64,000 nucleotides of DNA from a virus (lineage: Duplodnaviria; Heunggongvirae; Uroviricota; Caudoviricetes), in the IMG/VR virus record IMGVR_UViG_2671180724_000008. One strand, 5' to 3'. Position numbers and translations under genes: made by a program. The notes beneath the pieces are model-generated. The model ran no database searches. It had not been told where the DNA came from and saw only the letters and a list, made by a program, of their open reading frames with translations. Position 1 is the first letter of the stretch; every line of letters starts with the position of its first letter. Shown here piece by piece: positions 22,479 to 39,616 of this stretch.

Positions 22479-23256
22479 AAACATATTGATAAGTATTTAC
22501 TTACTTATCTTTTGTGTATAAGATGACTTTGTTTTCGTTGAGACGCGACTGTTTGAACTTAAATACAAGTGCAAACGAAGAAGTCTATCTGGCAGTAGCC
22601 TAATAAGCCAAACACCAGCGAGGTCAGTTTCCAGCCTCGTTACCGAAATGGGACACACTGAGCGAGTGTGATTGCAGAACGCAGGAGGGAACATTCATGT
22701 TCCCTCCGATGAAGTAACAGAATGGGCGGTTGGTATATTTTCAACTCCATATGACTCCCGGATTCTTAGCCACTGACCGCCCATCCTGTTACGTCATTTT
22801 GTTCAATTATGTCGTTTATACTGGGTTAAAAAGCGGCGACGTAGCCCGGCTGGTATGGTTAGCCAGCACACAACGTTGAGGCCATTACATTTTTATCAAT
22901 TCTAAGGTTCTATTCACAGAGATACCGGCGAGCGTTGATATGTAACATGTTGGGCAAACATTCAATCGGAGTAGTGGCCTCAACGTTGTGAAGACGGGAT
23001 TGTTGTGTAGGTTTAACCACTGTTGCCATTGGTGCCTGTTTTCACAACAAATGATTCCATACATCACATTGTATAAATTACAAAGTAGGTGCTGTCCTCA
23101 GAAACATCATCTACTTAAAGATTTTGCCTTCTACTATTGAGCGAAGTCGAAAGCGTCTGGCACTAACGAAAAGTGCAAGTAGCGGTGCGTTTCCTGGCAG
23201 AAACTAAACCGTCGCGATTGGCACTGTTGAGTAATAAATACTGGCAGTGCTGAATT

Positions 23257-23331
23257 GATGGTGTAGCTCAGCGGTAGAGCAGTTGGCTGTTAACCAACTG
23301 GTCGGTGGTTCGAATCCACCCACCATCGCCA
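23257..23331 (+). tRNA. tRNA-Asn (anticodon GTT)
   Basis: Canonical cloverleaf read by eye: acceptor gatggtg / caccatc, D-arm gctcagcggtagagc, anticodon loop ctGTTaa, T-arm ggtggttcgaatccacc, encoded CCA. Confidence 0.8.
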
Positions 23332-23336
23332 ATTTA

Positions 23337-23423
23337 GGGGAGTTAGTCCGTAGAGGTAGCGGTGTAGACTGTAAATCTACTGTCATTGCGACTCGGGTGG
23401 TTCGACTCCATCACTCCCCACCA
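23337..23423 (+). tRNA. tRNA-Tyr (anticodon GTA), type II with long variable arm
   Basis: Acceptor ggggagt / actcccc, anticodon stem-loop gtaga-ctGTAaa-tctac, long variable arm, T-loop ttcgact, encoded CCA. Confidence 0.7.
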
Positions 23424-23427
23424 AATT

Positions 23428-23503
23428 GCCGGTTTAGCTCAGTTGGTAGAGCGCCTGCCTTGTAAGCAGGATGTCAGCGGTTCGTGTCCGTTAACCGGCA
23501 CCA
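23428..23503 (+). tRNA. tRNA-Thr (anticodon TGT)
   Basis: Acceptor gccggtt / aaccggc, D-arm gctcagttggtagagc, anticodon loop ctTGTaa, T-loop ttcgtgt, encoded CCA. Confidence 0.75.
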
Positions 23504-24171
23504 ACATAATATTGAGAACATTGGCGTAACGGGGTCATATCCCAATCTATGAATAAATGTTACGTTGCCGCGTGACAACCAGTGTTCTCAACATTGTGGT
23601 GAATGCACAGGCTGATGTGCCGCAACTACAGTAGTGCGCGCTTTGCGGGGCTTGCTACAACCCTGTGTCGGAGATCAGCGCCGACCATCACAATTTGGCT
23701 CTCTTGCAACAGCATAACGCTGAAATATGTCCAACCTGGTGCGGCCTGTTCACCCGCCGTTAGCTCCACGAAACGGAGCGCACAACAGATAAGAGAACTT
23801 CCCATATGGGGCTTGGCTTAAATGCATCGAGTTCTCTTATCGCTGTGTCACAGACAAATTTCCGACAGCCCTGTTTATCATCGGACGCAACCTAAAAGGT
23901 CGAGGCAAAGCCAGGTAATAGCGGAGGGAGTGACACAGCACACAACAGGTAAGAGCATTTGTAGAGTTCGACTCTCTACCGTGGGCTTTTTCCCGCGATG
24001 CGAGCCATAAATGCTCTTTCCGTTGTGGTGGATTCGCAGACTGATGCGATAGCTTTCTTGGATGTTAGGGAAATGCGGCCGCAAATCTTCCCTTTCGCGA
24101 GCGGTGATCGTCCGTAGTCCTAATTGGCTGCACCGTATGCCGGAGATTCAGTACCGGCCACCACAACGGCC

Positions 24172-24258
24172 GGAGAGTAGGGAGCATGGTGCTCAAGCGG
24201 TCTTGAAAACCGTCCCATTGTGCAAACGATGATGGTTCGATTCCATTACTCTCCGCCA
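24172..24258 (+). tRNA. tRNA-Ser-like (anticodon TGA), type II, non-canonical D-arm
   Basis: Acceptor ggagagt / actctcc, anticodon stem-loop gcggt-ctTGAaa-accgt, long variable arm, T-loop ttcgatt, encoded CCA. The D-arm is irregular, so function is uncertain. Confidence 0.5.
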
Positions 24259-24260
24259 GA

Positions 24261-24338
24261 CACAGCGTTGAGCGGTTTGGCCTTTTAATCAACTCGATTA
24301 AGACTCCGCTAACATAAACCAGACCGCTCAACGCTGTG
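24261..24338. repeat. long imperfect inverted repeat immediately after the tRNA cluster
   Basis: 20-bp arms (19/20 match): cacagcgttgagcggtttgg and ccagaccgctcaacgctgtg, separated by a 42-nt loop. Confidence 0.6.
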
Positions 24339-24370
24339 ATAGACAATTACGGCAGACGTTCTTAACCATA

Positions 24371-24400
24371 GCTTGCTAACATCCTAGCAACACTTTTTTT
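24371..24400 (+). terminator. rho-independent terminator after tRNA region
   Basis: ttgcta-acatcc-tagcaa hairpin followed by cacttttttt. Confidence 0.5.
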
Positions 24401-24413
24401 CAGCGCAAAATTC

Positions 24414-24436
24414 AAAGGGGCTTCGGCCCCTTTTTT
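24414..24436. terminator. bidirectional rho-independent terminator
   Basis: aaaggggc-ttcg-gcccctttttt, with an A-run upstream and T-run downstream. Lies just past the 3' end of the minus-strand gene 24454..25788. Confidence 0.75.
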
Positions 24437-24453
24437 GAAAGCAATGGGCAAGT

Positions 24454-25788
24454 TCATGCCAAATTATCCAGATTTCTTTTCTTTTTTTCAATTATATTTC
24501 TCGCGCCAGAAAAAATTTTACTCAAAATAATTGATTTGCTTGCTCTATTATTAAGATGTAACAACGCGCTATAAAATACATAGTTATCTATTTTACTATT
24601 TAAAGTATTCCCAAGCTTCCCGTTATATGTGCTATTAATAGTATTAAAATATACATGTTCAGGACCTATATTACAAATACCCCTATCAACTCGCTTTAAA
24701 TAATGTTTAACTAAAGAAATAGCATCTTCCTTATCATTAATAACATAAAGTCCTGAGCGTTTACCTAGCTTGCTGTCCGAGAATAATTTATAACCAACAA
24801 GTTCATTTAACGTATTATCCACTTTTGTCAACTCTTTGTTGGCAATCTCCAAATAATACTCAATCTCTTTCTCCATATTACTTATTAAAGAGTTAAATTC
24901 TGCTCGTAACAAATCACCACCAGGTGATTTATAACTCCATAAAATTGAATTGGTAATACGTACTACGTCAGATACTTCTGGTTTCTCTGAATAGTTTTTG
25001 TATCTAGTGCAAATAATGCTGTGCTTTATATATTCTCTAACTAATGATCGATAATCCCTTTCGAAAAGGTTTTTGACATCTAGTCTTCCATTGCTTGTTG
25101 TTATTAAGGTGGTGTTTAAAACTGGGTCGCCTTCAAAAAAATTATATTTATTTAGTAATCGTTTTAGCTTGTGTGAATTATGTGATGTTTCGCCATAATA
25201 ATTTATCCCAAAAATAGCAATTATTAGCATAACATCAGGAGTGATGAAATGTCGTAATTGCTCGGCATAAACTTTTTTATCTTCGATTTTCGAAGATGGA
25301 GAGTAAAAACCTTTGTCTATATATTCTAATATTGAAACAATATTACTAACATAACGTATAAAAACTTGATTCATTACAACGGAATCATAAACCTGATGCA
25401 AATAATCTACTCTCAAGTTGTTTTTTATTTTTTCCCCTGTACTAGATGATAACTCTTCTTTTACCTGCCCAAGTAGCTTTTCGTGGTGCTCCAGCAATGT
25501 TTTAAACCATTGTTCAAATGATGATTTTCTTGCCTCAGTTAATGAATCTGATGTTATCTGGACAGCTTTCATAGCTGCTTTCGCACTTTTCTTTGCTTCA
25601 TAAGCGTTCCATGCTGAAGCACAAAAAGCTGCCGCCGTGATGCAACTGGTAAAAATAGAAATCCTATCTGCAACATTCAAGCTCCAGAACCAATCAGACG
25701 ATGAAATCAAAACCACAGATATTACGGGAACAATGAAAATCAAAACAGGCATGTATGTACTCGCTCTAATAGTTATTAGTCGAGGCAA
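24454..25788 (-). CDS. low-GC membrane protein of unknown function (candidate accessory / defence or exclusion gene)
   Basis: 444-aa minus-strand ORF in a markedly AT-rich segment. Two predicted N-terminal TM helices, then a largely helical soluble region with no nucleotide-binding or nuclease motif recognisable by eye. Own terminator at 24414..24436. Confidence 0.5.
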   Translation of the reverse strand: MPRLITIRASTYMPVLIFIVPVISVVLISSSDWFWSLNVADRISIFTSCITAAAFCASAWNAYEAKKSAKAAMKAVQITSDSLTEARKSSFEQWFKTLLEHHEKLLGQVKEELSSSTGEKIKNNLRVDYLHQVYDSVVMNQVFIRYVSNIVSILEYIDKGFYSPSSKIEDKKVYAEQLRHFITPDVMLIIAIFGINYYGETSHNSHKLKRLLNKYNFFEGDPVLNTTLITTSNGRLDVKNLFERDYRSLVREYIKHSIICTRYKNYSEKPEVSDVVRITNSILWSYKSPGGDLLRAEFNSLISNMEKEIEYYLEIANKELTKVDNTLNELVGYKLFSDSKLGKRSGLYVINDKEDAISLVKHYLKRVDRGICNIGPEHVYFNTINSTYNGKLGNTLNSKIDNYVFYSALLHLNNRASKSIILSKIFSGARNIIEKKKRNLDNLA

Positions 25789-25848
25789 ATATTATATAAA
25801 TCTCGTTATGATTTACAGACATGTATACGTATTGCTAATTATCACCAA

Positions 25849-25880
25849 CAAATGATAGGTGTGTACATATCTATCATTTG
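25849..25880. promoter_or_regulatory. palindromic operator-like site in a divergent intergenic region
   Basis: Perfect 10-bp inverted repeat caaatgatag ... ctatcatttg with a 12-nt spacer, between the minus-strand membrane-protein gene and the glutaredoxin gene. Confidence 0.45.
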
Positions 25881-25930
25881 TTGTAAAATTAATGTATACG
25901 CTATGAATACACTAATAATATGAGGTAATC

Positions 25931-26176
25931 ATGACTATCGTTATCTACGGACGAGATAACTGTTCATACTGCAAACGTGCGGTCGAGCTGGCGAAGCAAC
26001 TAAAGGGACATGGCTACGGTGATTATGAGTACATCGACATCACTACTACCGGTATCGATAAGGAAAAACTTAGCGAAATTGTTGGTAAACCGGTAGAGAC
26101 TATACCCCAGGTACTGATCGATGGCCAGCCGATTGGCGGATACACAGAACTGGCTGCATACGTCAGCACCCTCTGA
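25931..26176 (+). CDS. glutaredoxin (NrdH/Grx-like thiol-disulfide redoxin)
   Basis: 81-aa protein with active-site CSYC near the N-terminus and the TIPQVLIDGQPIGG motif. Confidence 0.7.
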   Translation: MTIVIYGRDNCSYCKRAVELAKQLKGHGYGDYEYIDITTTGIDKEKLSEIVGKPVETIPQVLIDGQPIGGYTELAAYVSTL

Positions 26177-26386: not shown

Positions 26387-27490
26387 ATGAAAAATAGCTT
26401 TGACAGAGCACGCGCTGCGGAGAACACCTCAAAAGAGGCGATTGAGTATCTCGAAAGAGCATCTCAAATGCAGGCCGTTATGATCTCGCAGGTTAGCAAT
26501 GACATGAGATTCTCGGACGCATTCATGTTATTCACTCGCTTATCTCTGCTTATAACCAGACGTCGGCCAGAGATCGCTGTTCATTGTATTTTGATACATG
26601 TTTTGCCGCACATTGCTGATGTAAAAGTAAGTGACATTAATAGGTTCATGGTGAACCAACTGGTAAACCCACTAATACTGGATGGCAAAATTGTTATGGG
26701 CCGCCGCGTTTTCTCTCTGATGAAGCAGTTCCTTAGCTGGTGCGCCTTCCAGGGGATGATAGACGTGTCACCGTTAAACGATATGTCACTAAACAAAGTT
26801 GCCGGTGGCGCAAAGCCCACACCTCGCGAGCGGAAGCTGACCGACGCAGAGGTATGGGTGTTCTGGAATATATGGGACTACTTCAATGTGTGCGCTGGTA
26901 CAAAATGGGCGGCCAGGCTGTGTCTTGTATCAGCAAGACGACCTGACGAAGTACTGCGGGCTAAAAAAAGTGAGTTCAATCTTAAGCGTGGGGTTTGGAA
27001 TCAAGGCAAGAGAAACAAGTCAGCACGTGAGCATTCGCTGCCTTTAAGCACATTAATGCGCACATGCATTGAAGAGTTGTTCGAATACGGTAAAGACAGC
27101 CAGTGGCTCGTGCCTTCGAATAAAAAAATCGGGAAAGACCTTCCTATGTCTAAAGTGGCAATAGCCCAGGCATTACGTCGTATTCTGGAACGACCAGAAC
27201 TGATGGAGCTTGAGCCATTTACACCCCGAGATTTGCGCCGTACTGCGCGTAGTTACTTCCCAGCATTAGGCATAAGCCAGGAGGTATCACGCAAAATCAT
27301 GAACCACAGTCTTGAGGGGATAGATCGGGTCTACGACCGGCACGATTATATGGACGAGATGCGAGACGCCTTAGAAAGTTTCTCGACGTACATCGCATCA
27401 ATCGTAGAGCAACCGGATTTAGACGAAATTGACCACAAATTCAAGGGAGATCGTCTATCAACAGAGCTTATTCGTGTAAATTTTTCATAG
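26387..27490 (+). CDS. tyrosine-type site-specific recombinase (integrase / resolvase family)
   Basis: 367-aa ORF. C-terminal catalytic region carries R..DLRRTARS ... HS ... YDRHDY, consistent with the R-H-R-Y tyrosine recombinase signature. Confidence 0.7.
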   Translation: MKNSFDRARAAENTSKEAIEYLERASQMQAVMISQVSNDMRFSDAFMLFTRLSLLITRRRPEIAVHCILIHVLPHIADVKVSDINRFMVNQLVNPLILDGKIVMGRRVFSLMKQFLSWCAFQGMIDVSPLNDMSLNKVAGGAKPTPRERKLTDAEVWVFWNIWDYFNVCAGTKWAARLCLVSARRPDEVLRAKKSEFNLKRGVWNQGKRNKSAREHSLPLSTLMRTCIEELFEYGKDSQWLVPSNKKIGKDLPMSKVAIAQALRRILERPELMELEPFTPRDLRRTARSYFPALGISQEVSRKIMNHSLEGIDRVYDRHDYMDEMRDALESFSTYIASIVEQPDLDEIDHKFKGDRLSTELIRVNFS

Positions 27491-27871
27491 AGACTTTATG
27501 GCCTCAACAACCTTTTGTGATGCGCCTTTCTCTTTACCGAATCGCTCGTTATATGCAGCAAGAACCTGTTTTTCGTCCTCGTTAAGAGGAGCGGTGCCTT
27601 CTTTGTATAAAAATGCTGCGAGTTCAGGTTGGCGTTCTTCCAGCACCATCATCATAAGACGACTTGGCTCAATACCCAGCGCCAGCGCCAGCGGACGAAC
27701 CTTATCGATAGGCAAAGGAATTTTGCCACTTTTAATTAAAGAAAGGTTGTTGGCATTTTTATAACCAATAAGTCTGGCTATTTGGGCCTGACTCATAGGT
27801 GAGGATTCAATCAGCCCTGCGATAAAAGCAGCATAGCGACTTTCTATAAATTCAATCTTGTTGTCAGACAT
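27485..27871 (-). CDS. XRE-family helix-turn-helix transcriptional regulator (repressor-like)
   Basis: 128-aa minus-strand ORF with HTH segment SQAQIARLIGYKNANNLSLIKSG. Convergent with the recombinase gene and divergent from the operon beginning at 28123. Confidence 0.6.
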   Translation of the reverse strand: MSDNKIEFIESRYAAFIAGLIESSPMSQAQIARLIGYKNANNLSLIKSGKIPLPIDKVRPLALALGIEPSRLMMMVLEERQPELAAFLYKEGTAPLNEDEKQVLAAYNERFGKEKGASQKVVEAIKSL

Positions 27872-28122
27872 TGTTACAACCTTTGCGCGTTTAATTCTCT
27901 CTGGTAAGTGCTTACCGATATTACATCAAAGGTTAGGGTTGTAAAGCTATTATCATTTTTTTCGGCAGGCACTTGTAAGACCGAGCAAAGGTCCATGCAT
28001 GGAGAAAAACTAGCCCAAAATAGGTAAGAAAATTAACTTGCATCTGATATAGATGTATTCAGTATTGATACAAATTTTAGTAGTATTCCTTACCATAGTA
28101 TAAGTTAGAATGGATTGATTGA

Positions 28123-28335
28123 ATGAAAACCACTATTTCCAGCCTAATCGCTCTTGAGATCGGACACGTACAGAAATTAGCTGATGAGTGTGTAGCTGAC
28201 ATCCTCACCGATCTACCGAATGAGCAGATTCAGGTTGGTGTGAATGACACAACTGGCTTTATATTCGAACTTAACAACAAACGCTTCACGCTTCTCAATA
28301 CCGGCTCCGGGTCTTTAGCCGTCAGAATCTGTTAA
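28123..28335 (+). CDS. hypothetical protein
   Basis: 70-aa ORF, first gene divergent from the HTH regulator. Confidence 0.3.
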   Translation: MKTTISSLIALEIGHVQKLADECVADILTDLPNEQIQVGVNDTTGFIFELNNKRFTLLNTGSGSLAVRIC

Positions 28336-28433
28336 CCCCTCTTCTCCCTGCGCGAATGGCTTAGTTCCCTGTTCGCGCAGTGCTACATTAAACACACTAG
28401 TAAATAATTTGTTTTCATAACAAAGGATTAGCC

Positions 28434-30542
28434 ATGTCTAAAAAACGTTCCATCAAAGAGGTTCAGGACTTCCGTGACAGTGTAAAACGAGTAGTCGCTC
28501 TCCTTTCAGGTAAAAACATCCCTGTTGCAGAACGAGGGGACGACGCTTATGTACGCTATAACGATGATGGAGAGCCAATTCTCGTAAACATCCCATCAAT
28601 CCCGGATAACGCAACACCGGCATTGATGAATGCTGTGCGCGGATTTCTCGATCATGAGGTTGCTCACATTTTGTTTACCGATATTCGTGTGTCCAACAAA
28701 ATGAGAGAAAAAGGACGCGTTCCTTCCTGGTCGCTATGGAATGCCTTAGAAGACGTGTTCATCGAGCGAAAAATGGGGCAGGTCTTTAACGGAACAAGAC
28801 GTAATCTGATGGCAACTCAGCGCCTTATAATCGAAAAAGTCTTTAAACCAAAGGCTTCAGAGGCTATTGCTTATTGTGGCAAAGATCAGCGCGCGCTTTT
28901 TCTAAACTTCTTTCTCTGTCCGGTTGTAAGAGCCTGGGATGGCCAAGCACCGTTCGTAGATTTCATGGATGAATACTGGCCTGTCATTGAGAAACCAATT
29001 TCATTATTAAAAGAACATGGTATCGATGTGGCCGTGCGTAACATGTCTTGCACCGAGGATTGTGTAAAGGTGGCTGCGACCATAGCTAAGATCCTCAAAG
29101 ACACTGAAAGTGAAAGCAAAGGTAAGGAGTCAGCTCCGGGAAAAACTTCCGATCCTTCAGACGCTGACCAGACGGATGCCTCTGGAGAAAACAATGAAGA
29201 CAACGAAGATCATGAGACACCCTCAGCGTTAGATAATCACAAATCTATCGAATCAGAATCACACAGTAAGCACAAACATGATAATAACGACAGTGATGAT
29301 TCAGATAATTCTGAATCATCAGAAACAATATTCGATGATACAGAAAATGATAAAGAGGTATCAGATTCTGATGCTTCTGATAACGCGGCGTCAGAATCAT
29401 TAACCGCTGGCCACGAAAAAAGAAAAACGACAGAAGACGGCTCTTCAGATATTCCAACTCCGTCAAAAATGAGTCTGGAAGAGGCTTTAGAGGAGCTGGA
29501 TAGCATAGAAGATGAAGTCGGAGGCATGACAGAAGATGCTCTATCCGAAACGATTAAAAGCGAGTTAACAGAAAGCTCGAAAAGCGAATACAGGCCATAC
29601 AATCGCTCATACGACTTCATCGGCTCGATTGATCAGGCAGAAGCCCATATCAAACGGCTTATTAAAACATTCTCCGATATTGATTTAGGAGGATATCCAA
29701 TCAGCCGCTATCGCATCGTTCCTGAAGGCAACCAGCTCTTCGACAAATATATTGAAAAGCATCTTTCGTCAGGTGTTTCGTCGACGCTGGCAAAAGACCT
29801 GGAGCGAGCAATAGCAAGCAGAAACAGAGTTCAGTTTATACCGGGCCAGCGTCGGGGGCGCATTCATGGTTCTAGTATCTACAGATTAGCAATGAATGAT
29901 GATCGCGTGTTTCGTAAAAAAGAAGAATCTAAAGCCGTTAACGCCTGTGTTCAACAAGTGATTGATTTATCAGGTTCAATGAGTGGCGAAACGATAAAAC
30001 TAGCTCTTGCAAGTGCATATACCATCGCCGATGCTCTTGATCGAATAAATGTTCCCAACATTATCACCGGCTTCACTACATTTGGCAGTCATCTGGCAGC
30101 GATAGAACTTAAGGCTATCAAGTATGAGTTCTCTCGCTTTGAATCTTTAATGCTACCTATCATCAAAAATTGGAATGAAAAAGCAAATTCTCGCGAAGTT
30201 CGCTCACGTATGGGGTGCGTAGGCTACACATTCCCACTTCTTAATAACGTGGATGGTGAAAGCATAGCCAGCCTTGCATCGTTATTTTCCGGTCGCATGG
30301 AGGACAGGAAGATCATGCTTGTTCTGAGCGATGGCGAGCCGCTGGCTGTTGGGAGAGGTTTTGACGCTCATTTGCGTTCGGTTGCGAAGCAAATTGAAAC
30401 GCAGACTGACATTGATTTGATGGCAATTGGCATCATGACTGACGCACCGGAGAGATTTTACGCAAATCATGCCCTGGTAACGAGCGTTGATAGTCTTGGT
30501 TCATCTGTAGTTACTGAACTATCTCGTATCATTTTGAAGTGA
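28434..30542 (+). CDS. CobT-like von Willebrand factor A domain protein with acidic disordered linker
   Basis: 702-aa ORF. C-terminal VWA domain with MIDAS DLSGSMSG, central Asp/Glu/Ser-rich low-complexity region, and an N-terminal HEVAH (HExxH) motif. Confidence 0.6.
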   Translation: MSKKRSIKEVQDFRDSVKRVVALLSGKNIPVAERGDDAYVRYNDDGEPILVNIPSIPDNATPALMNAVRGFLDHEVAHILFTDIRVSNKMREKGRVPSWSLWNALEDVFIERKMGQVFNGTRRNLMATQRLIIEKVFKPKASEAIAYCGKDQRALFLNFFLCPVVRAWDGQAPFVDFMDEYWPVIEKPISLLKEHGIDVAVRNMSCTEDCVKVAATIAKILKDTESESKGKESAPGKTSDPSDADQTDASGENNEDNEDHETPSALDNHKSIESESHSKHKHDNNDSDDSDNSESSETIFDDTENDKEVSDSDASDNAASESLTAGHEKRKTTEDGSSDIPTPSKMSLEEALEELDSIEDEVGGMTEDALSETIKSELTESSKSEYRPYNRSYDFIGSIDQAEAHIKRLIKTFSDIDLGGYPISRYRIVPEGNQLFDKYIEKHLSSGVSSTLAKDLERAIASRNRVQFIPGQRRGRIHGSSIYRLAMNDDRVFRKKEESKAVNACVQQVIDLSGSMSGETIKLALASAYTIADALDRINVPNIITGFTTFGSHLAAIELKAIKYEFSRFESLMLPIIKNWNEKANSREVRSRMGCVGYTFPLLNNVDGESIASLASLFSGRMEDRKIMLVLSDGEPLAVGRGFDAHLRSVAKQIETQTDIDLMAIGIMTDAPERFYANHALVTSVDSLGSSVVTELSRIILK

Positions 30543-30637
30543 TTAAAACAGCCTTAACGATAAGTAACTACTTATGATAGTTAATGATATATTTATATAA
30601 GAAGTTGAACGCTCATTAGAGAACAAAGGAAAAACGC

Positions 30638-31873
30638 ATGACTACTACTGCACTGCAAAATGAAAAAAATCCTTCTGATTACCTTGTTTGCAAGTGGTGC
30701 GGAAAATCATTTCACTATTTTAAGTCCCATGTAGCCTATGGTAATTGCGAGGGCATTCCTGAGTCGGTAAAAGATGCCGATCCTGACACCGTACTGAAAA
30801 TGTACACAACGCAGTTTCCAGATGAACCAACGCTATCGAAAAAGGCACTTGATGCAATTCAAGCTAAACGTGCCGAGCAAAAAAGCGAAATGGCCAAATC
30901 TTCTGGTGTGACCAGTAGCCCAGGCTACATAGGCACAGTTGAGTACAAGACAGATCTGGTCGCAGCTCACGAACTGCTAGACGTAACGGTGGAAGAACTC
31001 GGAACAAAACGTGGGACGCCGCTCATGGTTAGCGTCAACGTCAATACGCCGTTTCCAGAGTTCGTTCCTGAAGTGAAGAAGGGCTACGTATATGGCGACT
31101 TCGAACTGATCAAAGACATTTTCATGATGCTTGAACTTGGCATACCAGGCTATTTGTGGGGACATGCAGGAACAGGCAAATCGTCATTGCCTACACAGCT
31201 ATGTGCTTTGCTCAATCGTCCGTTGATCCGTGCCCAACATACAGCATCAATGGAAGAAGCTCATGTTACGGGTCAAATTCTGGCGCGTGATGGCTCTACG
31301 TATTTCGAGCCAGGCTTGCTTGCGCTCGCAATGAAGCATGGCTGGGTTTACCTCGCGGATGAATACGACTTTGCGTTTCCACAAATTCTTGGCGTGTATC
31401 AGCCAGTGCTGGAAGGTGAAGCGTTGGTCATCAAAGAGGCGACACCAGAATGGCGTCGCATTACTCCGCATAAACGGTTTGCTTTTATTGGCACTGGCAA
31501 CACGAACGGATCTGGTGATGAAACCGGCTTGTACCAGGGTACAAACATCCAGAACGCCGCGAACTTTTCGCGTTTTGGCATCGTTTCGAATGTGAAATAC
31601 ATGAGCAAAGAGGCAGAGATCAACATGTTGATAAATGCCGGCATTGTGGATGAGTACGCTGAAAAGATGGTTAAGTTTGCCGGTATCGTTCGCGATGGTT
31701 ACGAAGAACACAATATCAGCCAACCGATTGGGCCTCGTGAGCTTTTGTTGTCGGCCAAGATTGGAATGATGCGAGGCGACTTTGTGACAGGTATTGAGCG
31801 TTCTTTCATTAACAAACTCCCTTCAGCTTCTGCACAAGCGGCTCGTGAAGTTGTTCAAAAAATATTTGGTTGA
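30638..31873 (+). CDS. CobS/MoxR-like AAA+ ATPase
   Basis: 411-aa ORF with Walker A GHAGTGKSS and an N-terminal Cys-rich segment CKWCG...C. Start preceded by aaaggaaaaacgcATG. Confidence 0.6.
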   Translation: MTTTALQNEKNPSDYLVCKWCGKSFHYFKSHVAYGNCEGIPESVKDADPDTVLKMYTTQFPDEPTLSKKALDAIQAKRAEQKSEMAKSSGVTSSPGYIGTVEYKTDLVAAHELLDVTVEELGTKRGTPLMVSVNVNTPFPEFVPEVKKGYVYGDFELIKDIFMMLELGIPGYLWGHAGTGKSSLPTQLCALLNRPLIRAQHTASMEEAHVTGQILARDGSTYFEPGLLALAMKHGWVYLADEYDFAFPQILGVYQPVLEGEALVIKEATPEWRRITPHKRFAFIGTGNTNGSGDETGLYQGTNIQNAANFSRFGIVSNVKYMSKEAEINMLINAGIVDEYAEKMVKFAGIVRDGYEEHNISQPIGPRELLLSAKIGMMRGDFVTGIERSFINKLPSASAQAAREVVQKIFG

Positions 31874-32079
31874 TCGTGCGTAAAGGATGTTTCGGCTCTC
31901 TTATCGCTGCTTCTGAAACTGGTAAGGCTTGTCTGGTGTGTCCAGACAAGCCCGATTGTCACCAATCAGCAAAAGAAGTTGCGATTTCGATGCACGGGAA
32001 GTTCGTAGGCTTCCCAAATGACAAAATCAAAAAAACCAGAAAGGTAAAAACACATGAAGGCACTGATGGTTCGAACTGA
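31870..32079 (+). CDS. small Cys-rich hypothetical protein
   Basis: 69-aa ORF, ATGA-coupled to the upstream gene and overlapping the polymerase start. Contains CLVCPDKPDC. May be spurious. Confidence 0.25.
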   Translation: MIVRKGCFGSLIAASETGKACLVCPDKPDCHQSAKEVAISMHGKFVGFPNDKIKKTRKVKTHEGTDGSN

Positions 32080-35000
32080 CTTCTCACTTGGGGAGTCGGC
32101 TTTAAAAGCGGAAAACGCGGTGAAGATTGCCAGAGAAGCTGGCTACACCGCTGTAATTTCAGCAGATAGCATGAATATTGCGAGTGTTATTCCACTACAA
32201 CGTGCCGCTGGTGACGACATGGCGGTTATTTGTGGTGTGAAACTAAATATCGTTGATGATCCCACATACGAGTACCGGGCTAAACTTGCTAAAGAGTCTA
32301 AGGGATGTATGGAATCATTAGAGCGAGGACGTAACTACTCGTTTACCGCTCTAATTAAAAATGAGCAAGGATATCGCGACATCTGCGAACTAATGACGGT
32401 GGCCAACACACGAGAACAGTTCTACTTTGTACCGCGTCTCTCGCTCGAACAGTTGGTTTCTACATATGCCAAAGGCAACATCATCCTGCTCACTTCCGAC
32501 ATCGGTAGCGTGTTCCAACGCAACGATTTTGCAAAAATCATAAGCACACTGATTACAGCGGGTGGAAAAGACAACTTCTATAGTGTGGTTTATCCGCACC
32601 CTACCCCATTCTACGACCAGATTAACGTCCGGGCGATGAAAGTCGCCAGCGCATTGAAAATAGAGCCAGTGGCGTTCTATCCCGCTTATTACGAATCGAT
32701 CGACGATGCAGACATTAAAGACATTGCGCACATGGTTACGAACAACATCAAAATCGACCAGCCGCATCGTCTGCGTATCCCCCACCAGCGAGATAACGCC
32801 GTCAATGGTCGCCGCCATCTCCTTGAGGCTCTTAAAGCCTTCTCCGTTCGCATGGATGTGCCGGTAACAGCTGCAATGGCCTCAACAACGCAGGATACCA
32901 TTATCGATGCCTGCACATGGCGCTGGCATGAATTGCCGCCAGCACTGCCAAAGATGGCAGACGACGAGCCTGCAACGCTTATGAAACTGGCTGTTGCAGG
33001 GCTGCGTAAACGTCTTACCACAAAAGAGTTTGGCTACACACCACCTGCTTCTGAGAACAGGGTTTATGTTGAGCGGCTAAAGTACGAAATGGACACGCTG
33101 ACTCGCCTGGGATTTTGTGGTTACTTCCTGATGGTACGCGATCTGATGAATCACAGCCGTGAAACTGGCATTCCTGTCGGGCCTGGTCGTGGTTCCTCCG
33201 CTGGATCTCTGGTGGCATGGTGCATAGGCATAACCAACGTCGACCCAATCCGTCACGGTCTTCTGTTTGAACGTTTCATCAACCCTGAGCGTCTCGACTT
33301 GCCGGATGCGGATTTGGACTTCAGCCAGGCACGTCGCCATGAAGTGATCGAGTATTTGAATGAACGCTACGGCGAAGATTACGTTGCGGGTATTCCGAAC
33401 TTCACATATCTGGGCGCAGCCTCTGCACTACGTGACACCGCTCGTATTTATGGTGTGGAGTCCGCAGATATGGCGGTATCAAAAGAACTGAAGAACGTCG
33501 AGGATGATAGCCTTCCATTGGAAGAACTGCGCGAACAACTGGCAAGTCTCGACAAATACGCAACAAAATATCCTGATGCATTCAATGCAGCCTGCAAGTT
33601 ACAAAGCCTTATGCGTGGCTTTGGTAGACATGCGGCAGGGATGATCGTAGCAGGTGTTCCTCTGACAGAACGTACACCGGTTGAGCGCCGTGGTGACGCG
33701 CGTTGTATCGCATTTGACAAGCGTTACTGCGAGGCTATGGGCCTAATTAAGCTGGACGTGCTTGGCCTGGCAACTCTCGATTTGCTCGATAGTGCAAAAC
33801 GCTACATAAAAGAGAACACAGGTGAAGATATCAATCTTGATGCCATTTCTCTTGAGGATCGCAAGGTGCTGGATGGTTTTGCTGCTGGGTACACTCAAGG
33901 TGTTTTCCAGCTTGAATCAGGCCCAATGCGCAAGCTGCTTAAAGATTTAGGTGGTGGAATTGAGCCAATGAGCTTTAAAACGGTTGTTGCTACGACTGCG
34001 CTCTTCCGGCCGGGGCCAATTCAGTCAGGCATGTTGGATGATTATGTTTCTGTCGCCAAAGGCTTTATGACGCCGGAATCATTACACCCCGTTCTTGATG
34101 AACTTACCGCAGAAACAAATGGCGTGATTCTCTATCAGGAACAGACGATGAACGCGACTCGATTGCTTGCTGGCTTCACAATGGCTGAAGCTGACGGTGT
34201 TCGTAAAGCGATCGGCAAAAAAGACATGGAAAAAATGAAGAGCATGGGCGAGAAGTTCATCGTTCAGGCTCAAGCTGGCTGGATAGACGTTGAGCTGGAA
34301 GATGGCACTACACAGCGCATTCACCGTGCGGAACATTTTAAATGCGAAGACGGAACTCTGAAAACTGTCGAAGAGGCACTTGAGTACGGCGCAAAACTAC
34401 CTATAAACGCAGTACGCGTTACAGCGTCACATCCAGGGCTATCAGAGATGAAAGCGAAGGAGATCTGGACCGCATTCGAAAAGAATGGTGCCTACCAGTT
34501 CAACAAATCACACTCTGTTGCTTACTCCTTAATCAGTTATCAATCTATGTGGTTGAAAACTCATTATCCCGCAGAGTTTTTCGCTGCTGCTCTCACTATT
34601 CTTGGCGAAGATAAACACCAGGGGCTGGTTAAAGATGCGCTGACCTATGGTATTCGCGTATTGCCACCAGACGTTAACGTGTCATCTAACCGAATCGAGA
34701 TCCGCACGCTTGAAGATGGCAGCCAGGTGCTGTATGCGCCCTTCTCTGCTGTGAAAGGTTGTTCTGAGAATGGCTGCCAGGCCATCATGAGAGCGCGAGA
34801 AAAAGTTGGCGGCAAATTCGAGTCACTGGCGCAATTCGAAGAAGCTGTCGAGAAACGTGCCTGTAATAGTCGAGTGCGCGAATCACTGCAAAAAGTAGGG
34901 GCGTTTGCATCCATCGAGCCAGGTAGTCTGCCAGCAACTGATCCAGAGCGTCTCCGCGACCAAGCTGAATTGATGGGAAACCTTGTCATAGACGCAGTTA

Positions 35001-35572
35001 AAGCCTCACGTCCGTTTGAGATGAACCCCAAACGTTCGGCTGAGATTAACGTGCTCATGACACGGATGGCGGCTGAAATGGGATTAGGTGATGAACTAAT
35101 CCGCCCTAGCATTGGCATTAAGCCGAAAATCATGATCATTCTGGACAATGCAAACGGCAATGATGCTCGAACCGGTTACTTTATGGAGAACGGATACGAC
35201 GATTTTAAGGCCAAGCTGTTGACGGCTGGGGATTTGCGCATGGGCGATCTCTATGTCACAGGCGTTTGCAAAAAGGTGAAAGACAAAGAAAAGGACTACA
35301 CCAAAGACGAGATCGGCCAGTTCACCGACTTTATGCGTGAAGAGATCAATCTGGTGCGCCCGACCTATGTGCTGACGTGTGGCAGCCGGGCAACGGCATT
35401 GTTTAACAACAAAAACAAGCCATCCGATTTGGTCGGCAGGAAGGAGTACCTTCCAGACCTTGACGTTACTGTCTTTTACGGGTTTAACCCCAACATTCTT
35501 TACTTCAGACCTGAAGAGGGAGAACGACTAGAAGCGATATTAGCCGACGTAGCAGAAACCATTAAGACGTGA
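32054..35572 (+). CDS. dnaE: DNA polymerase III alpha subunit-like replicative polymerase (DnaE family) with C-terminal extension
   Basis: 1172-aa ORF. N-terminal PHP-like region, central Pol III alpha-type palm/fingers, and an extra C-terminal domain of about 200 aa. Start preceded by aaaggtaaaaacacATG. Confidence 0.75.
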   Translation: MKALMVRTDFSLGESALKAENAVKIAREAGYTAVISADSMNIASVIPLQRAAGDDMAVICGVKLNIVDDPTYEYRAKLAKESKGCMESLERGRNYSFTALIKNEQGYRDICELMTVANTREQFYFVPRLSLEQLVSTYAKGNIILLTSDIGSVFQRNDFAKIISTLITAGGKDNFYSVVYPHPTPFYDQINVRAMKVASALKIEPVAFYPAYYESIDDADIKDIAHMVTNNIKIDQPHRLRIPHQRDNAVNGRRHLLEALKAFSVRMDVPVTAAMASTTQDTIIDACTWRWHELPPALPKMADDEPATLMKLAVAGLRKRLTTKEFGYTPPASENRVYVERLKYEMDTLTRLGFCGYFLMVRDLMNHSRETGIPVGPGRGSSAGSLVAWCIGITNVDPIRHGLLFERFINPERLDLPDADLDFSQARRHEVIEYLNERYGEDYVAGIPNFTYLGAASALRDTARIYGVESADMAVSKELKNVEDDSLPLEELREQLASLDKYATKYPDAFNAACKLQSLMRGFGRHAAGMIVAGVPLTERTPVERRGDARCIAFDKRYCEAMGLIKLDVLGLATLDLLDSAKRYIKENTGEDINLDAISLEDRKVLDGFAAGYTQGVFQLESGPMRKLLKDLGGGIEPMSFKTVVATTALFRPGPIQSGMLDDYVSVAKGFMTPESLHPVLDELTAETNGVILYQEQTMNATRLLAGFTMAEADGVRKAIGKKDMEKMKSMGEKFIVQAQAGWIDVELEDGTTQRIHRAEHFKCEDGTLKTVEEALEYGAKLPINAVRVTASHPGLSEMKAKEIWTAFEKNGAYQFNKSHSVAYSLISYQSMWLKTHYPAEFFAAALTILGEDKHQGLVKDALTYGIRVLPPDVNVSSNRIEIRTLEDGSQVLYAPFSAVKGCSENGCQAIMRAREKVGGKFESLAQFEEAVEKRACNSRVRESLQKVGAFASIEPGSLPATDPERLRDQAELMGNLVIDAVKASRPFEMNPKRSAEINVLMTRMAAEMGLGDELIRPSIGIKPKIMIILDNANGNDARTGYFMENGYDDFKAKLLTAGDLRMGDLYVTGVCKKVKDKEKDYTKDEIGQFTDFMREEINLVRPTYVLTCGSRATALFNNKNKPSDLVGRKEYLPDLDVTVFYGFNPNILYFRPEEGERLEAILADVAETIKT

Positions 35573-35581
35573 TCCCATAAA

Positions 35582-35604
35582 CATGGCCTCTATGGCCATG
35601 TTTT
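35582..35604 (+). terminator. rho-independent terminator
   Basis: catggcc-tcta-tggccatg hairpin followed by tttt. Confidence 0.6.
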
Positions 35605-35697
35605 CCCTTATCCCCTCATATCCCCTATCCTCGAACTCCTTGCCTTATCATCACAATGATATAATCAATATAAAATGATAAGTAAAAAGGAAAGCAC

Positions 35698-36129
35698 ATG
35701 ATCACCGATATTTACGAGAAAATAATGTCTGATCTCGAGTTTGACCGAGACAATCTGGAGGAAGTCTGGCGTAGACAACCCCGCCTTTTAATGGAGTATG
35801 GCTCAAAACTCGCTCATGCAGAAAGAAGTGTCGCAGAGGCAAAACTTAACCTTGAAGCTGTTGAAGCAAAGCTATACGACACAGAGCGTAAGAACTTGAG
35901 TATGAACGGCATTAAGTTCAACGAGTCTGTACTGGACGCTAAGGTTAAAACAAACCCACAGTATCTGTCTAAACGGCAGAAGTTGGATGAAGCACGGCAC
36001 ATCGCAGACATATACAAACATGCTGTCGCCGCCTTTTCGCATCGCCGAGACATGATCGTTCAGGCGTCGAAGATGGCCATCGTTGAGTTAGATCGATTAG
36101 GCTCTGAACGCTTTATTACTCCCCGTTGA
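35698..36129 (+). CDS. hypothetical protein
   Basis: 143-aa ORF with the conserved start context aaaaggaaagcacATG, between the polymerase and SSB genes. Confidence 0.45.
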   Translation: MITDIYEKIMSDLEFDRDNLEEVWRRQPRLLMEYGSKLAHAERSVAEAKLNLEAVEAKLYDTERKNLSMNGIKFNESVLDAKVKTNPQYLSKRQKLDEARHIADIYKHAVAAFSHRRDMIVQASKMAIVELDRLGSERFITPR

Positions 36130-36246
36130 TTTTTGATAGATAATAAGTAAGTACTGATCTATCATTTAACAGCTCGAAAGAGCCACGAATGAACGAAAGC
36201 CCAACGCGCATAGCGCCATCGGCCAAATCACAACAAGGAGAAACAC

Positions 36247-37269
36247 ATGTCTAAGACATTACTTGATTTGCTTAACAAAACTCGTGAAGACATTGCCGCC
36301 AAACGTGGCAAAAACACTGATTTGACCCGCTTAAAAGACGGCATCAACTATATCCGCATCTTCCCTAATAAAGACGACCCGAATGGTAAGTTCTTCCAGA
36401 CTTTTGGTATGCACTACATTAAGTATCAGAACGAGGAAGGTAAAGAAGCAACCAATGCTTATATTTGTGAGCAACATACTCACGGTCGCGCTTGTCAGCT
36501 ATGCGAAATGGTGATGGAAGGTCGCGCTCGTCACAAGGGTAACAAAGCAATGGAAGAGCGCATCGGTCAAATGCGTGCAACCCCTCGCTACCTGGTAAAC
36601 GGCATTCTTTCAACTCGTGAGGATTTCTCCGATGCAGAGAAATGTCAGTTAATCGAACTGCCTTCCACTGTGTTCGATGATATCTGCAAAGCAATCACCG
36701 AAGACATCGCTGACGATATCGGCAATCCATTAAGCAAAGAGGAAGGTTACGCATTTCAAATTAAGCGCACAGGCTCTGGTCGCGATACAGAATATGACGT
36801 TTCACCAAAACGTAAAGTCTTCAAAGGTGATATCGAAGATAAATTCTGGAACAACCAACATGACCTGATTGCTTATGTGAATCAGGCCGATGAAACTCGC
36901 CTTCTTGCGACAGTTCGCACTATGGGTCGTCTGATTGGCATCGCTGCACCAACTGCCACTGCATCGGCACCAGCAATTTCCTCAACAGCGAAAACATCGG
37001 CCTCTGCACTGCCTGGATTTGGCTCGATCACTGGTCATACGGAAGGAGCGACGGCTGTAGCAACCGCCCACACTCCAGCTTCTGAACCAACCAGTCTGGT
37101 TGATGAAGAAGTCCTGCGAGCAATGGAATCTGAATTTAAATCAGAAACAAGTTCTGCTGCCACATCAGCCAAAGAGTCTGAAGCAGACGCAACGACATCT
37201 GTAGCAGCCGCATCTGCGGCGGAAGATGAAGGTATTGATGACCTGCTGAAAGAACTGGAGTCTCTGTAA
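36247..37269 (+). CDS. single-stranded DNA-binding protein (T4 gp32-like) with acidic C-terminal tail
   Basis: 340-aa ORF. N-terminal region aligns by eye with gp32 (INYIRIFPNKDDPNGKFF versus gp32 AVIRFLPSKNDEQAPF) and carries a Cys/His cluster CEQHTHGRACQLC. Acidic C-terminus EDEGIDDLLKELESL. Confidence 0.6.
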   Translation: MSKTLLDLLNKTREDIAAKRGKNTDLTRLKDGINYIRIFPNKDDPNGKFFQTFGMHYIKYQNEEGKEATNAYICEQHTHGRACQLCEMVMEGRARHKGNKAMEERIGQMRATPRYLVNGILSTREDFSDAEKCQLIELPSTVFDDICKAITEDIADDIGNPLSKEEGYAFQIKRTGSGRDTEYDVSPKRKVFKGDIEDKFWNNQHDLIAYVNQADETRLLATVRTMGRLIGIAAPTATASAPAISSTAKTSASALPGFGSITGHTEGATAVATAHTPASEPTSLVDEEVLRAMESEFKSETSSAATSAKESEADATTSVAAASAAEDEGIDDLLKELESL

Positions 37270-38542: not shown

Positions 38543-39616
38543 ATGGCAAAAGGAAAATCCGCACTGGCACTTGCTCTGAAAAAGAAAATCGGTAGCAACG
38601 ACGAAATTCAGAAAGTAACCCATTGGATTGACACAGGCTTTCCTCCGTTAAACAAAGCTATTTCAGGTCGTTACGATGGCGGTTTCCCATGTGGTCGTAT
38701 CGTAGAAGTATTCGGGCCGCCAAGCGCGGGGAAAACCTTTTTGGCAACAGCAGCAATGATCTCCGCTCAGAAACAAGATGGTCTGGCGGTATTCCTCGAT
38801 CATGAGAACAGTTTTGACGTTGGCCTGGCGGTAGCCAATGGCCTGAATGCAGATGAGGATGACGGCCAGTGGGTATACAAGCAGCCTGATACCTTCGAAG
38901 ACTCTGTAGAGTTGATCGGCACAATACTTAAATTGGTACGTGATGAAGAGCTTATCCCTGAATCAGCACCTATCTGTATCGTGGCTGACTCACTTGCGTC
39001 TATGGTTCCGAACTCCAAAGCCGAGAAGTTCGAAAAGATGGCTGAAGGCACTGCCAAAGACAAAGATCAGCTAAACATGAACGACAATACGGCGCTTGCT
39101 CGTGCGACGAGCGCGAACTTCCCCACTCTGGCTTTGTGGGCACGCAAATATAACGCCTGCATCATCTTCTTGAATCAGGTTCGCACAAAAATCGGTGTAA
39201 TGTTTGGCGACCCTACGACGTCACCAGGCGGCGATTCACCGAAGTTTTACGCTTCTGTGCGCATCCGTCTCGGTGCATCGGTGATGAAGGATGGTAAAGA
39301 GAAGATCGGTCAGGACGTAGGCGCAGAGTGCATCAAAAACAAAGTTGCACCACCGTATGGCAAATGCACCTGGAAATTCTACTTCGATCCTACTCGTGGC
39401 CTCGACGTTATCGAGTCGCTCGTCGAGTACATGCTGGAAGAAGGATACCTGCCAAAGAACGCCAGCGGGCGCGTAGAAATTGGTGACAAGAAATACACCA
39501 AATCACAGATCGTCGAGATGTATCGGGAGAAGCCACTAGCTGAAATCATTGCGGCTTTACAGGCAATCGACGACCGGAGATCAAAAGACAATCCCACCGA
39601 GTCAGTAGAAGAGTAA
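38543..39616 (+). CDS. RecA-family recombinase (RecA/UvsX-like)
   Basis: 357-aa ORF. Walker A region RIVEVFGPPSAGKTFLA closely resembles RecA GRIVEIYGPESSGKTTL. Confidence 0.6.
   Translation: MAKGKSALALALKKKIGSNDEIQKVTHWIDTGFPPLNKAISGRYDGGFPCGRIVEVFGPPSAGKTFLATAAMISAQKQDGLAVFLDHENSFDVGLAVANGLNADEDDGQWVYKQPDTFEDSVELIGTILKLVRDEELIPESAPICIVADSLASMVPNSKAEKFEKMAEGTAKDKDQLNMNDNTALARATSANFPTLALWARKYNACIIFLNQVRTKIGVMFGDPTTSPGGDSPKFYASVRIRLGASVMKDGKEKIGQDVGAECIKNKVAPPYGKCTWKFYFDPTRGLDVIESLVEYMLEEGYLPKNASGRVEIGDKKYTKSQIVEMYREKPLAEIIAALQAIDDRRSKDNPTESVEE

Follow-up and report, generated by a model that had tools for sequence, protein, structure and literature searches.

The DNA analyzed here is a window of 64,000 nucleotides, the whole stretch presented from the IMG/VR virus record IMGVR_UViG_2671180724_000008 (Duplodnaviria; Caudoviricetes). 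It carries two adjacent genes, one encoding a CobT-like protein with a von Willebrand factor A (VWA) domain, hereafter T, and the other encoding a CobS/MoxR-class AAA+ ATPase, hereafter S. An earlier note, made from the sequence alone, had described two open reading frames (ORFs) at this site, the first with an HEVAH motif, an acidic linker, and a VWA domain bearing its MIDAS (metal ion-dependent adhesion site), and the second encoding an AAA+ ATPase. Each of these elements was recovered (Table 1), and the note's view of the pair as CobT/CobS-like is borne out by homology to the Brucella proteins of known structure, with E-values of 9.6e-17 for CobT and 3.8e-26 for CobS.

By DNA comparison, Escherichia phage Cyrano matches this region at 97.9% identity and E. 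coli plasmids at up to 99.6%; weaker matches lie in Salmonella phage SSU5 and in 454 plasmid records of Escherichia, Enterobacter, Yersinia, Salmonella, and Citrobacter. Based on these matches, the window belongs to an SSU5-like phage-plasmid. T and S are a core gene pair of such phage-plasmids; they have been annotated before and are not new. In databases the two genes are labeled “cobalamin biosynthesis protein CobT”, “AAA family ATPase”, or “porphyrin biosynthesis protein”, and the Cyrano annotation names the pair after the unrelated Salmonella CobT and CobS enzymes.

Table 1. Features of the T-S locus and its flanks (positions are those of the window; a dot marks a feature without strand).
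Feature	Position	Strand	Basis or remark
Helix-turn-helix (HTH; XRE-like) regulator	27485..27871	-	weak Pfam HTH_19/HTH_37; phrog_8 “transcriptional regulator”, 6.6e-12; “putative repressor” in Cyrano
70-residue ORF, first gene of the rightward operon	28123..28335	+	phrog_2627, 5.8e-41; same place in Cyrano
Perfect 9-bp inverted repeat, CTGCGCGAA-N15-TTCGCGCAG	28348..28380	.	repeat search; between the 70-residue ORF and the T start codon
T, CobT-like adaptor, 702 residues	28434..30542	+	Pfam; full-length match to phrog_1576, E 4e-299
T N-domain (residues 1-228), predicted zincin/M48-like fold	28434..29117	+	helix, three-stranded sheet, nine helices
RGFLD of T (R69, D73), counterpart of Brucella CobT R76, D80	28638..28652	+	alignment; G70 and D73 invariant
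HEVAH (H74, E75, H78), putative zinc-binding/catalytic motif	28653..28667	+	on helix of residues 62-81
NALEDVFIE (N103, E106, D107, E111), candidate third metal ligand	28740..28766	+	“glutamate helix”, residues 99-117; alignment; AlphaFold placement
Acidic, Ser-rich linker of T (about residues 229-400)	29118..29633	+	composition; varies in length and sequence among close homologues
Shaft of T (residues 464-502), NRVQFIPGQRRGRIHGSS..., counterpart of CobT Q373-R413	29823..29939	+	alignment; preprint
VWA domain of T with complete MIDAS (D511, S513, S515, N605, D633)	29907..30536	+	aligned to Brucella D422, S424, S426, N518, D546
S, CobS/MoxR-class AAA+ ATPase, 411 residues	30638..31873	+	phrog_249, 2.8e-106; PDB CobS 9ujv, E 3.8e-26 (residues 142-411)
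Zinc-finger-like C2HC motif of S (C18, C21, H31, C37)	30683..30751	+	C18, C21, H31 at least 90% conserved
Walker A of S, GHAGTGKS (residues 175-182)	31160..31183	+	G175, G178, G180, K181 invariant in S alignment
Pore-loop region of S, invariant E206 and E207	31235..31279	+	E206 replaces CobS S102, a shaft-contact residue
Walker B of S, WVYLADE (residues 236-242)	31343..31363	+	D241, E242 invariant in S alignment
C-terminal helix of S; E404, Q407, K408 as CobS E308, Q311, R312	31835..31870	+	alignment
69-residue ORF overlapping the S stop and polymerase start codons	31870..32079	+	phrog_6337, 2e-45
DnaE-type (family C) DNA polymerase, 1172 residues	32054..35572	+	Pfam PHP, DNA_pol3_alpha, DNA_pol3_finger, HHH_6

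Architecture of the gene pair

T matches the Pfam models CobT (residues 9-294, E 1.3e-27) and CobT_C, the VWA model (residues 492-701, E 3.4e-82), and it presents the CobT domain order in full: an N-domain predicted to be M48-like, an acidic linker, a shaft, and a VWA domain whose MIDAS motif reads DLSGS (residues 511-515). Between residues 221 and 400, the linker is 18% serine, 15% glutamate, and 14% aspartate, with a net charge of -37. It is presumed to be disordered, given this composition and its homology to the disordered linker of CobT, which is unresolved in the CobST structures (bioRxiv 10.64898/2026.07.21.739949). A role for the linker as a DNA mimic was dropped because true CobT carries the same kind of linker. 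Relatives of the N-domain are plentiful; a search of residues 1-230 against 1.84 billion representative proteins yielded 1138 matches at E <= 0.001, and the 127 listed relatives of more than 550 residues are all 588-864 residues long and have the N-domain in common with T.

The HEVAH sequence of this N-domain separates the phage-type proteins from the true, chelatase-type CobT. At the aligned site, T reads RGFLDHEVAH and true CobT reads RGxxDSMALR. HExxH is kept in 356 of 359 phage-type homologues (120/120 close SSU5-like proteins, 110/112 profile matches, and 126/127 full-length representatives), as well as in 148 of the 150 best representatives listed, versus none of 80 true CobT proteins, an alphaproteobacterial set retrieved by searching with the CobT sequence from the PDB. 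Bartonella genomes (loci L007 and L072) yielded cobT genes of the chelatase type, in which the motif is degenerate (DSMALR). Alignments of 70 and 86 homologues of the N-domain, at roughly 30-38% identity, show G70, D73, H74, E75, E106, D107, E111, G120, and R166 to be invariant and H78 to be invariant or nearly so. Such conservation of H74, E75, and H78 indicates that HEVAH is not a chance match, and the invariant E106 and E111 both lie on the helix spanning residues 99-117.

Structure prediction, which the earlier note had suggested for both proteins, points to a zincin topology of the N-domain with high confidence. From the 86-sequence alignment, AlphaFold modeled residues 1-230 with a mean predicted local distance difference test (pLDDT) score of 91.7 and a predicted template modeling (pTM) score of 0.87. 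In order, the model comprises a helix, three strands (residues 31-53), the HExxH helix (62-81), a short helix, a long helix (99-117), and further helices. HExxH, which is kept family-wide, is accordingly placed on a helix after a mixed sheet, and the predicted fold resembles that of solved zincins of the gluzincin, M48-like kind. Foldseek returned no significant match for the N-domain in the PDB; structural matches in BFVD include VWA proteins of sipho-, podo-, and haloarchaeal tailed viruses and of actinophages, all sharing this N-domain. A profile search against PDB sequences gave an alignment that starts at the “glutamate helix”, with nothing before it, and a single-sequence search gave chance matches alone (e.g., HLA chains). 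Finally, a weak PHROG “peptidase” match (phrog_459, 1.7e-8) covers residues 72-128.

S matches Pfam AAA_5 at residues 173-293 (E 1.7e-15), with weaker matches among PDB sequences to midasin (8.1e-12), CbbQ (1.6e-6), and NorQ (9.9e-4), and its homologues also bear CbbQ_C. With an intact Walker A/B ATPase adjoining a VWA protein with a complete MIDAS, S and T are, as judged from their sequences, a MoxR-class pair. S also carries an N-terminal extension of about 140 residues that is absent from chelatase CobS, and no Pfam match was found in its first 140 residues. This N-terminus had been called Cys-rich, which overstates the case; it holds three cysteines (C18, C21, and C37) that, together with H31, make up a single zinc-finger-like motif of the pattern CxxC-x9-H-x5-C/H, conserved in the S alignment. 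AlphaFold predicts a beta-hairpin and a helix, i.e., a beta-beta-alpha finger, at this motif (residues 11-80, pLDDT 81-96). The N-terminal extensions of the ATPases differ by lineage, being zinc-finger-like in S, a different 110 residues in cyanophage, approximately 360 residues in roseophage CRP-810, and a Cys-rich 270 residues in Gordonia phage Woes; these extensions look like targeting domains.

The structures of the Brucella cobaltochelatase CobSTN provide a template for the pair. In that complex, CobS forms a ring, and CobT_N, which has an M48C-like fold, docks on the small subdomain of CobS through salt bridges between CobS E308, Q311, and R312 and CobT R76 and D80. The CobT shaft (Q373-R413) enters the pore of the ring upon nucleotide binding, and CobN is gripped by the VWA/MIDAS face on one side and, on the other, by the three-stranded sheet of CobT_N together with its beta3-alpha2 loop (bioRxiv 10.64898/2026.07.21.739949). 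Counterparts of the docking residues and the shaft can be aligned in T and S (Table 1). Among 45 phage-type ATPases, the glutamine corresponding to CobS Q311 is kept in 36, and the position of R312 is occupied by R or K in all 45. The net charge of the shaft is +6 in T and +6.5 +/- 1.3 across phage-type proteins (n=70), versus -1.2 +/- 0.65 in chelatase CobT (n=30). In the pore, the position of CobS S102 holds E in 45/45 phage-type ATPases versus S in 30/30 chelatase CobS proteins, and the position of R147 holds F, Y, or H in the majority of the phage-type ATPases. Since the charges of shaft and pore have changed reciprocally, a conserved, co-evolving shaft-in-pore contact is suggested. The phage-type S proteins are without the helix alpha10 patch (A322-V326) of the chelatase.

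Gene context in the window and in other phages

As the earlier note had it, T and S are co-oriented with replication genes in an array that diverges from the HTH gene, and this arrangement suggests that they are probably expressed together with those genes. The pair lies a short way upstream of the polymerase, with the 69-residue ORF bridging S and the polymerase. This small ORF encodes four cysteines (C7, C21, C24, and C30), has no Pfam or NCBIfam match, and possibly belongs to the T-S module. In distant relatives, a sigma-70-like gene and an ORF of 170-180 residues stand in its place. The polymerase is followed by a UvsY-like gene, a gp32-like single-stranded DNA-binding protein gene, a 5'-3' exonuclease gene, and a RecA-like gene. 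A scan of positions 27400-36300 for promoters and terminators found sites no more numerous than in shuffled controls. The inverted repeat ahead of T is not a canonical terminator, given that no T-run follows it, and may serve as an operator or form an RNA hairpin.

Wider contexts of the pair were found by tblastn against annotated phages. When viral contigs were scanned with the CobS-like alignment, close relatives alone (78-100% identity) were recovered, and no new contexts. Within the group formed by SSU5-like elements, Pseudomonas phage nickie, and Rhizobium phages, the order is helicase-primase-ligase, then, further along, T, S, small ORFs or a sigma-like gene, and DnaE; this T-S-DnaE order holds in relatives with about 30% identity in the T N-domain and 35-45% in S. 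In the T4-like cyanophage S-SM1, the order is gp47-gp46-“peptidase”-CobS-gp45-gp44-gp62, in which the “peptidase” (702 residues) carries HEVGH and DWSGS and the last three genes encode the clamp and clamp loader. In the Vibrio podophage ICP2, CobT (gp41, with HECYH) and CobS are followed by five small ORFs and then by genes for a primase, a helicase, and a family A polymerase. The combination of HExxH...LED..IE and MIDAS is present in S-SM1 and ICP2 gp41, as well as in roseophage CRP-810 CobT, Rhizobium phage RHph_X66, and Gordonia phage Woes gp80. In sum, three unrelated groups of phages have the pair amid their replication genes, and the replication modules of these groups differ in type, with a family C polymerase in the first, a clamp and clamp loader of T4 type in the second, and a T7-like set of primase, helicase, and family A polymerase in the third. 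It stands among structural genes in none of the contexts examined (SSU5-like, nickie, Rhizobium phages, S-SM1, ICP2, Woes, and CRP-810). Gene order is reversed, with the ATPase first, in Woes (gp81-gp80; L172 4209-7681) and CRP-810 (L167 1827-5645), where the ATPases are also much longer, at 520 and 617 residues.

Several differences from relatives were seen nearby. Positions 34250-35718, comprising the final third of the DnaE-like gene and what follows it, have no DNA match in Cyrano, which has a HicAB toxin-antitoxin downstream of its polymerase, and the polymerase of one distant relative (L084 12387-15809) ends in a Pfam UDG domain. The RecA-like gene is 1074 nucleotides long in the window (38543-39616) versus 2340 in Cyrano (L001 32362-34701), which suggests an intein or other insertion in the latter. 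A low-GC island at 23518-25919, absent from Cyrano, has a GC content of 0.36 (bin 24001-26000) versus 0.41-0.51 in all other 2-kb bins. Its ORF at 24454-25788 on the minus strand (444 residues) has a weak Pfam putAbiC match just below the cut-off (E 2.9e-4) and no PADLOC match, and may be a cargo defense gene. From the tRNA-Asn, tRNA-Thr, and tRNA-Ser genes of Cyrano (L001 16318-16565), a three-tRNA cluster is expected at the island edge, at approximately 23250-23500.

Proposed mechanism and alternatives

The interpretation preferred here, to which a probability of about 0.5 is assigned, is that T and S would form an ATP-driven, CobST-like motor-adaptor machine with a live M48-like metallopeptidase, acting on a protein client rather than a corrin as part of the early or replication program. 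This agrees with the earlier note, which had proposed a remodeling machine or an HExxH metallopeptidase; HExxH separates phage-type proteins from true CobT, and the predicted topology is that of a zincin. By homology to Brucella CobSTN, S would assemble as an ATP-dependent hexameric ring, and the N-domain of T would dock on the small subdomain of S through R69 and D73, facing E404, Q407, and K408. Nucleotide binding would then drive the basic shaft of T into the acidic pore of S at E206 and E207, and the VWA/MIDAS face would oppose the three-stranded sheet of the N-domain, clamping a third partner just as CobN is clamped in the chelatase. Homology lends good support to these assembly steps. 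In T, the clamped client would be a protein, cut or processed at the HExxH site, with the ATP-driven movement of the shaft serving to position, strain, or release it. The motor may be brought to this client by S through its zinc-finger-like N-terminus. A protein client is probable because the chelatase holds CobN on what is the substrate side of a zincin, and the adjoining catalytic motif is intact in T; cleavage or processing at the N-domain is, by the same analogy, probable as well. Since replication genes surround such pairs in three groups that are unrelated, the client is most likely a phage protein linked to replication or recombination, or a conserved host protein encountered at that stage.

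A number of observations weigh against this interpretation. For residues 1-230 of T, Pfam at E <= 10 returns PF06213 (CobT) alone and no peptidase model. R69/D73 and E106/E111 are likewise conserved in the non-catalytic chelatase CobT, and so part of the conservation of the N-domain reflects docking or fold, not catalysis. In the cobT of phage nickie (L166 8974-11058), T-S-DnaE is kept and both zinc-binding histidines are lost (GFLDSEISK), which parallels the degeneration of chelatase CobT; because the pair persists there, proteolysis is not indispensable everywhere. The CRP-810 and Woes pairs stand among unannotated genes. Within the SSU5/nickie/Rhizobium-phage group, moreover, adjacency to replication genes is inherited synteny and not independent evidence; the whole replication module is syntenic there, and the adjacency to DnaE was down-weighted as functional evidence for that reason. 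Finally, no experiment on any phage homologue was found in the literature searched.

The usual reading in the literature makes phage CobS and CobT true auxiliary metabolic genes that capture the host's CobN and raise cobalamin for nucleotide production. The homology to CobS and CobT is clear, with domain order, shaft, and MIDAS alike, and the idea was proposed explicitly for viral cobST clusters (PMC8651126) and echoed in several genome papers. For the present pair, it is nonetheless highly improbable, and the earlier note's judgment that a chelatase role is implausible is upheld. T scores 67.6 bits against an NCBIfam equivalog cut-off of 759.05 (TIGR01651) and S scores 87.2 against 558.55 (TIGR01650). 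Neither CobN nor any other cobalamin gene is annotated in the complete Cyrano genome or present in the scanned window-specific ORFs, in agreement with the earlier note. According to its annotation, the 108-kb Cyrano genome encodes a B12-independent ribonucleotide reductase of the NrdAB type and the thymidylate synthase ThyX. E. coli is not known to encode CobN or a pathway for making corrins de novo, and Salmonella relies on the CbiK route. Retention of the protease motif in phage proteins and its loss in 80/80 sampled true CobT proteins speak against this reading as well, as do the altered shaft-pore electrostatics and the extra zinc-finger-like N-terminus of S. More broadly, phage records with CobS-like ATPases number 677, of which 131 are from Staphylococcus and 52 from Listeria phages, and their presence in myophages of these two genera is hard to reconcile with a general cobalamin role.

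An assembly role was put forward by Iyer et al. (2021; PMC7824862) for T4-like jumbo phages, in which a MoxR-vWA chaperone would build the capsid or tail and the metallopeptidase would trim structural proteins. The architecture they described is the same, the AAA+/VWA/protease combination fits such work, and they cited a MoxR-vWA system required for tail development in the Acidianus two-tailed virus. The non-structural setting of the pair in every context examined speaks against it; in the window, tail, lysis, partition, helicase-primase-ligase, and integrase genes intervene before the structural genes. The text of PMC3037559 names T4-GC15 and T4-GC190 only as virion proteins of the cyanophage core that were identified by experiment, whereas the pair corresponds to T4-GC146 and T4-GC150. 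Virion assembly is thus a doubtful role for T and S. About equally improbable is a chaperone that inserts a metal cofactor into a phage metalloenzyme, such as the PHP domain of DnaE or NrdB, with HExxH holding or handing over the metal. Most characterized MoxR-VWA pairs do perform metal insertion or metalloenzyme activation (CobST, BchID, NorQD, CoxDE, and CbbQO), one large group of phages has a PHP-domain polymerase next to the pair, and the loss of histidines in nickie means that catalysis is dispensable in some members. The pair of cyanophages, ICP2, and Gordonia phages, however, has no adjacent DnaE-type polymerase, and the putative gluzincin signature is retained in full, with its catalytic E75, for which mere metal holding has no need. 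A zincin fold is not known to act as a metallochaperone.

The client might instead be of host origin, with the machine acting early after derepression as a takeover or anti-defense protease that cuts a conserved host protein, be it a defense, nucleoid, or replisome factor. This is unlikely, although it differs from the preferred machine in the origin of the client alone; no PADLOC or other tie to known defense or counter-defense systems was found, and a client encoded by the phage and itself conserved would account for the conserved surface just as well. A bolder version of the preferred interpretation, which is rather unlikely, would make the pair a distinct kind of ATP-dependent protease, with its peptidase on the VWA adaptor of a MoxR motor and its substrate clamped between MIDAS and active site rather than threaded through the ring. 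As a corollary, cellular CobST would be a derived, protease-dead offshoot of a widespread viral module.

Should T and S prove to be a protease-bearing remodeling machine of the replication program, the consequences would extend beyond this element. Marine cyanophages have genes named cobS and cobT in their core set, and genes so named are found in many further tailed phages and in viruses of archaea as well. Virome studies routinely count them as B12 “auxiliary metabolic genes”. Such annotations, and the ecological inferences derived from them, would then be wrong, and for a phage function of wide occurrence there would be a concrete mechanism open to test, directly so with the CobSTN structures of July 2026. 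A conserved early function would also be identified in SSU5-like phage-plasmids, frequent in clinical Enterobacteriaceae and akin to the Yersinia pMT1-type and Salmonella pHCM2-type plasmids.

Relation to known systems

Among the closest known systems is Brucella CobSTN (PDB 9ujv/9uka series). The genes are adjacent in both, S is an AAA+ ATPase of the same clade as CobS, and T shares with CobT the M48-like N-domain, the acidic linker, the pore-inserting shaft, a VWA domain with a D-S-S-N-D MIDAS, and the docking residues. Unlike CobT, whose N-domain is without the catalytic motif (DSMALR; 0/80 HExxH), T retains HExxH. In the phage proteins, a strongly basic shaft is paired with an acidic pore, whereas the chelatase has the reverse tendency; S has its N-terminal extension with the zinc-finger-like motif and no C-terminal helix alpha10, and no CobN partner is annotated in Cyrano or present in the scanned window-specific ORFs. 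T and S score approximately 6- to 11-fold under the equivalog cut-offs of the chelatase (EC 6.6.1.2).

The pair also resembles NorQ-NorD, CbbQ-CbbO, RavA-ViaA, CoxD-CoxE, and Rea1/midasin, in which a hexameric AAA_5-type motor works with a MIDAS adaptor that presents the client; the clients of these systems are metalloenzymes, Rubisco, and ribosome assembly factors. In none of them is an adaptor with an intact peptidase domain known, unlike T. On the peptidase side, the M48/M56 gluzincins (ZMPSTE24/Ste24, BepA, HtpX, Oma1, and BlaR1) and the minigluzincins are among the closest known systems.

Viral pairs of this kind have been reported before. Iyer, Anantharaman, Krishnan, Burroughs, and Aravind (2021; PMC7824862) described a phage MoxR AAA+/vWA pair with an N-terminal metallopeptidase, and Liu et al. 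(2021; PMC8651126) described a viral “cobST” cluster. T and S have the same architecture, a CobS/MoxR-like ATPase adjoining a VWA protein with an N-terminal HExxH, and the cyanophage “peptidase” and CobS have the HExxH...LED..IE signature, MIDAS, and ATPase just as T and S do. The previously described pairs come from T4-like jumbo phages or cyanophages and from archaeal viruses, whereas T and S reside in a temperate E. coli phage-plasmid beside a family C polymerase. The functions proposed in those two papers, virion assembly (PMC7824862) and cobalamin boosting (PMC8651126), predate the solved CobSTN architecture, and other papers state that the function of phage cobS “remains uncertain”. In the literature searched, nothing combines SSU5 or phage-plasmids with CobT or cobalamin, and CobT-like phage proteins appear in genome announcements only. 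Relative to this earlier work, what is new here is the split between phage-type proteins that have kept HExxH and chelatase CobT that has lost it, the failed equivalog test, the mapping of the pair onto the CobSTN structure with its change of shaft-pore charge, and the recurrent replication-gene context.

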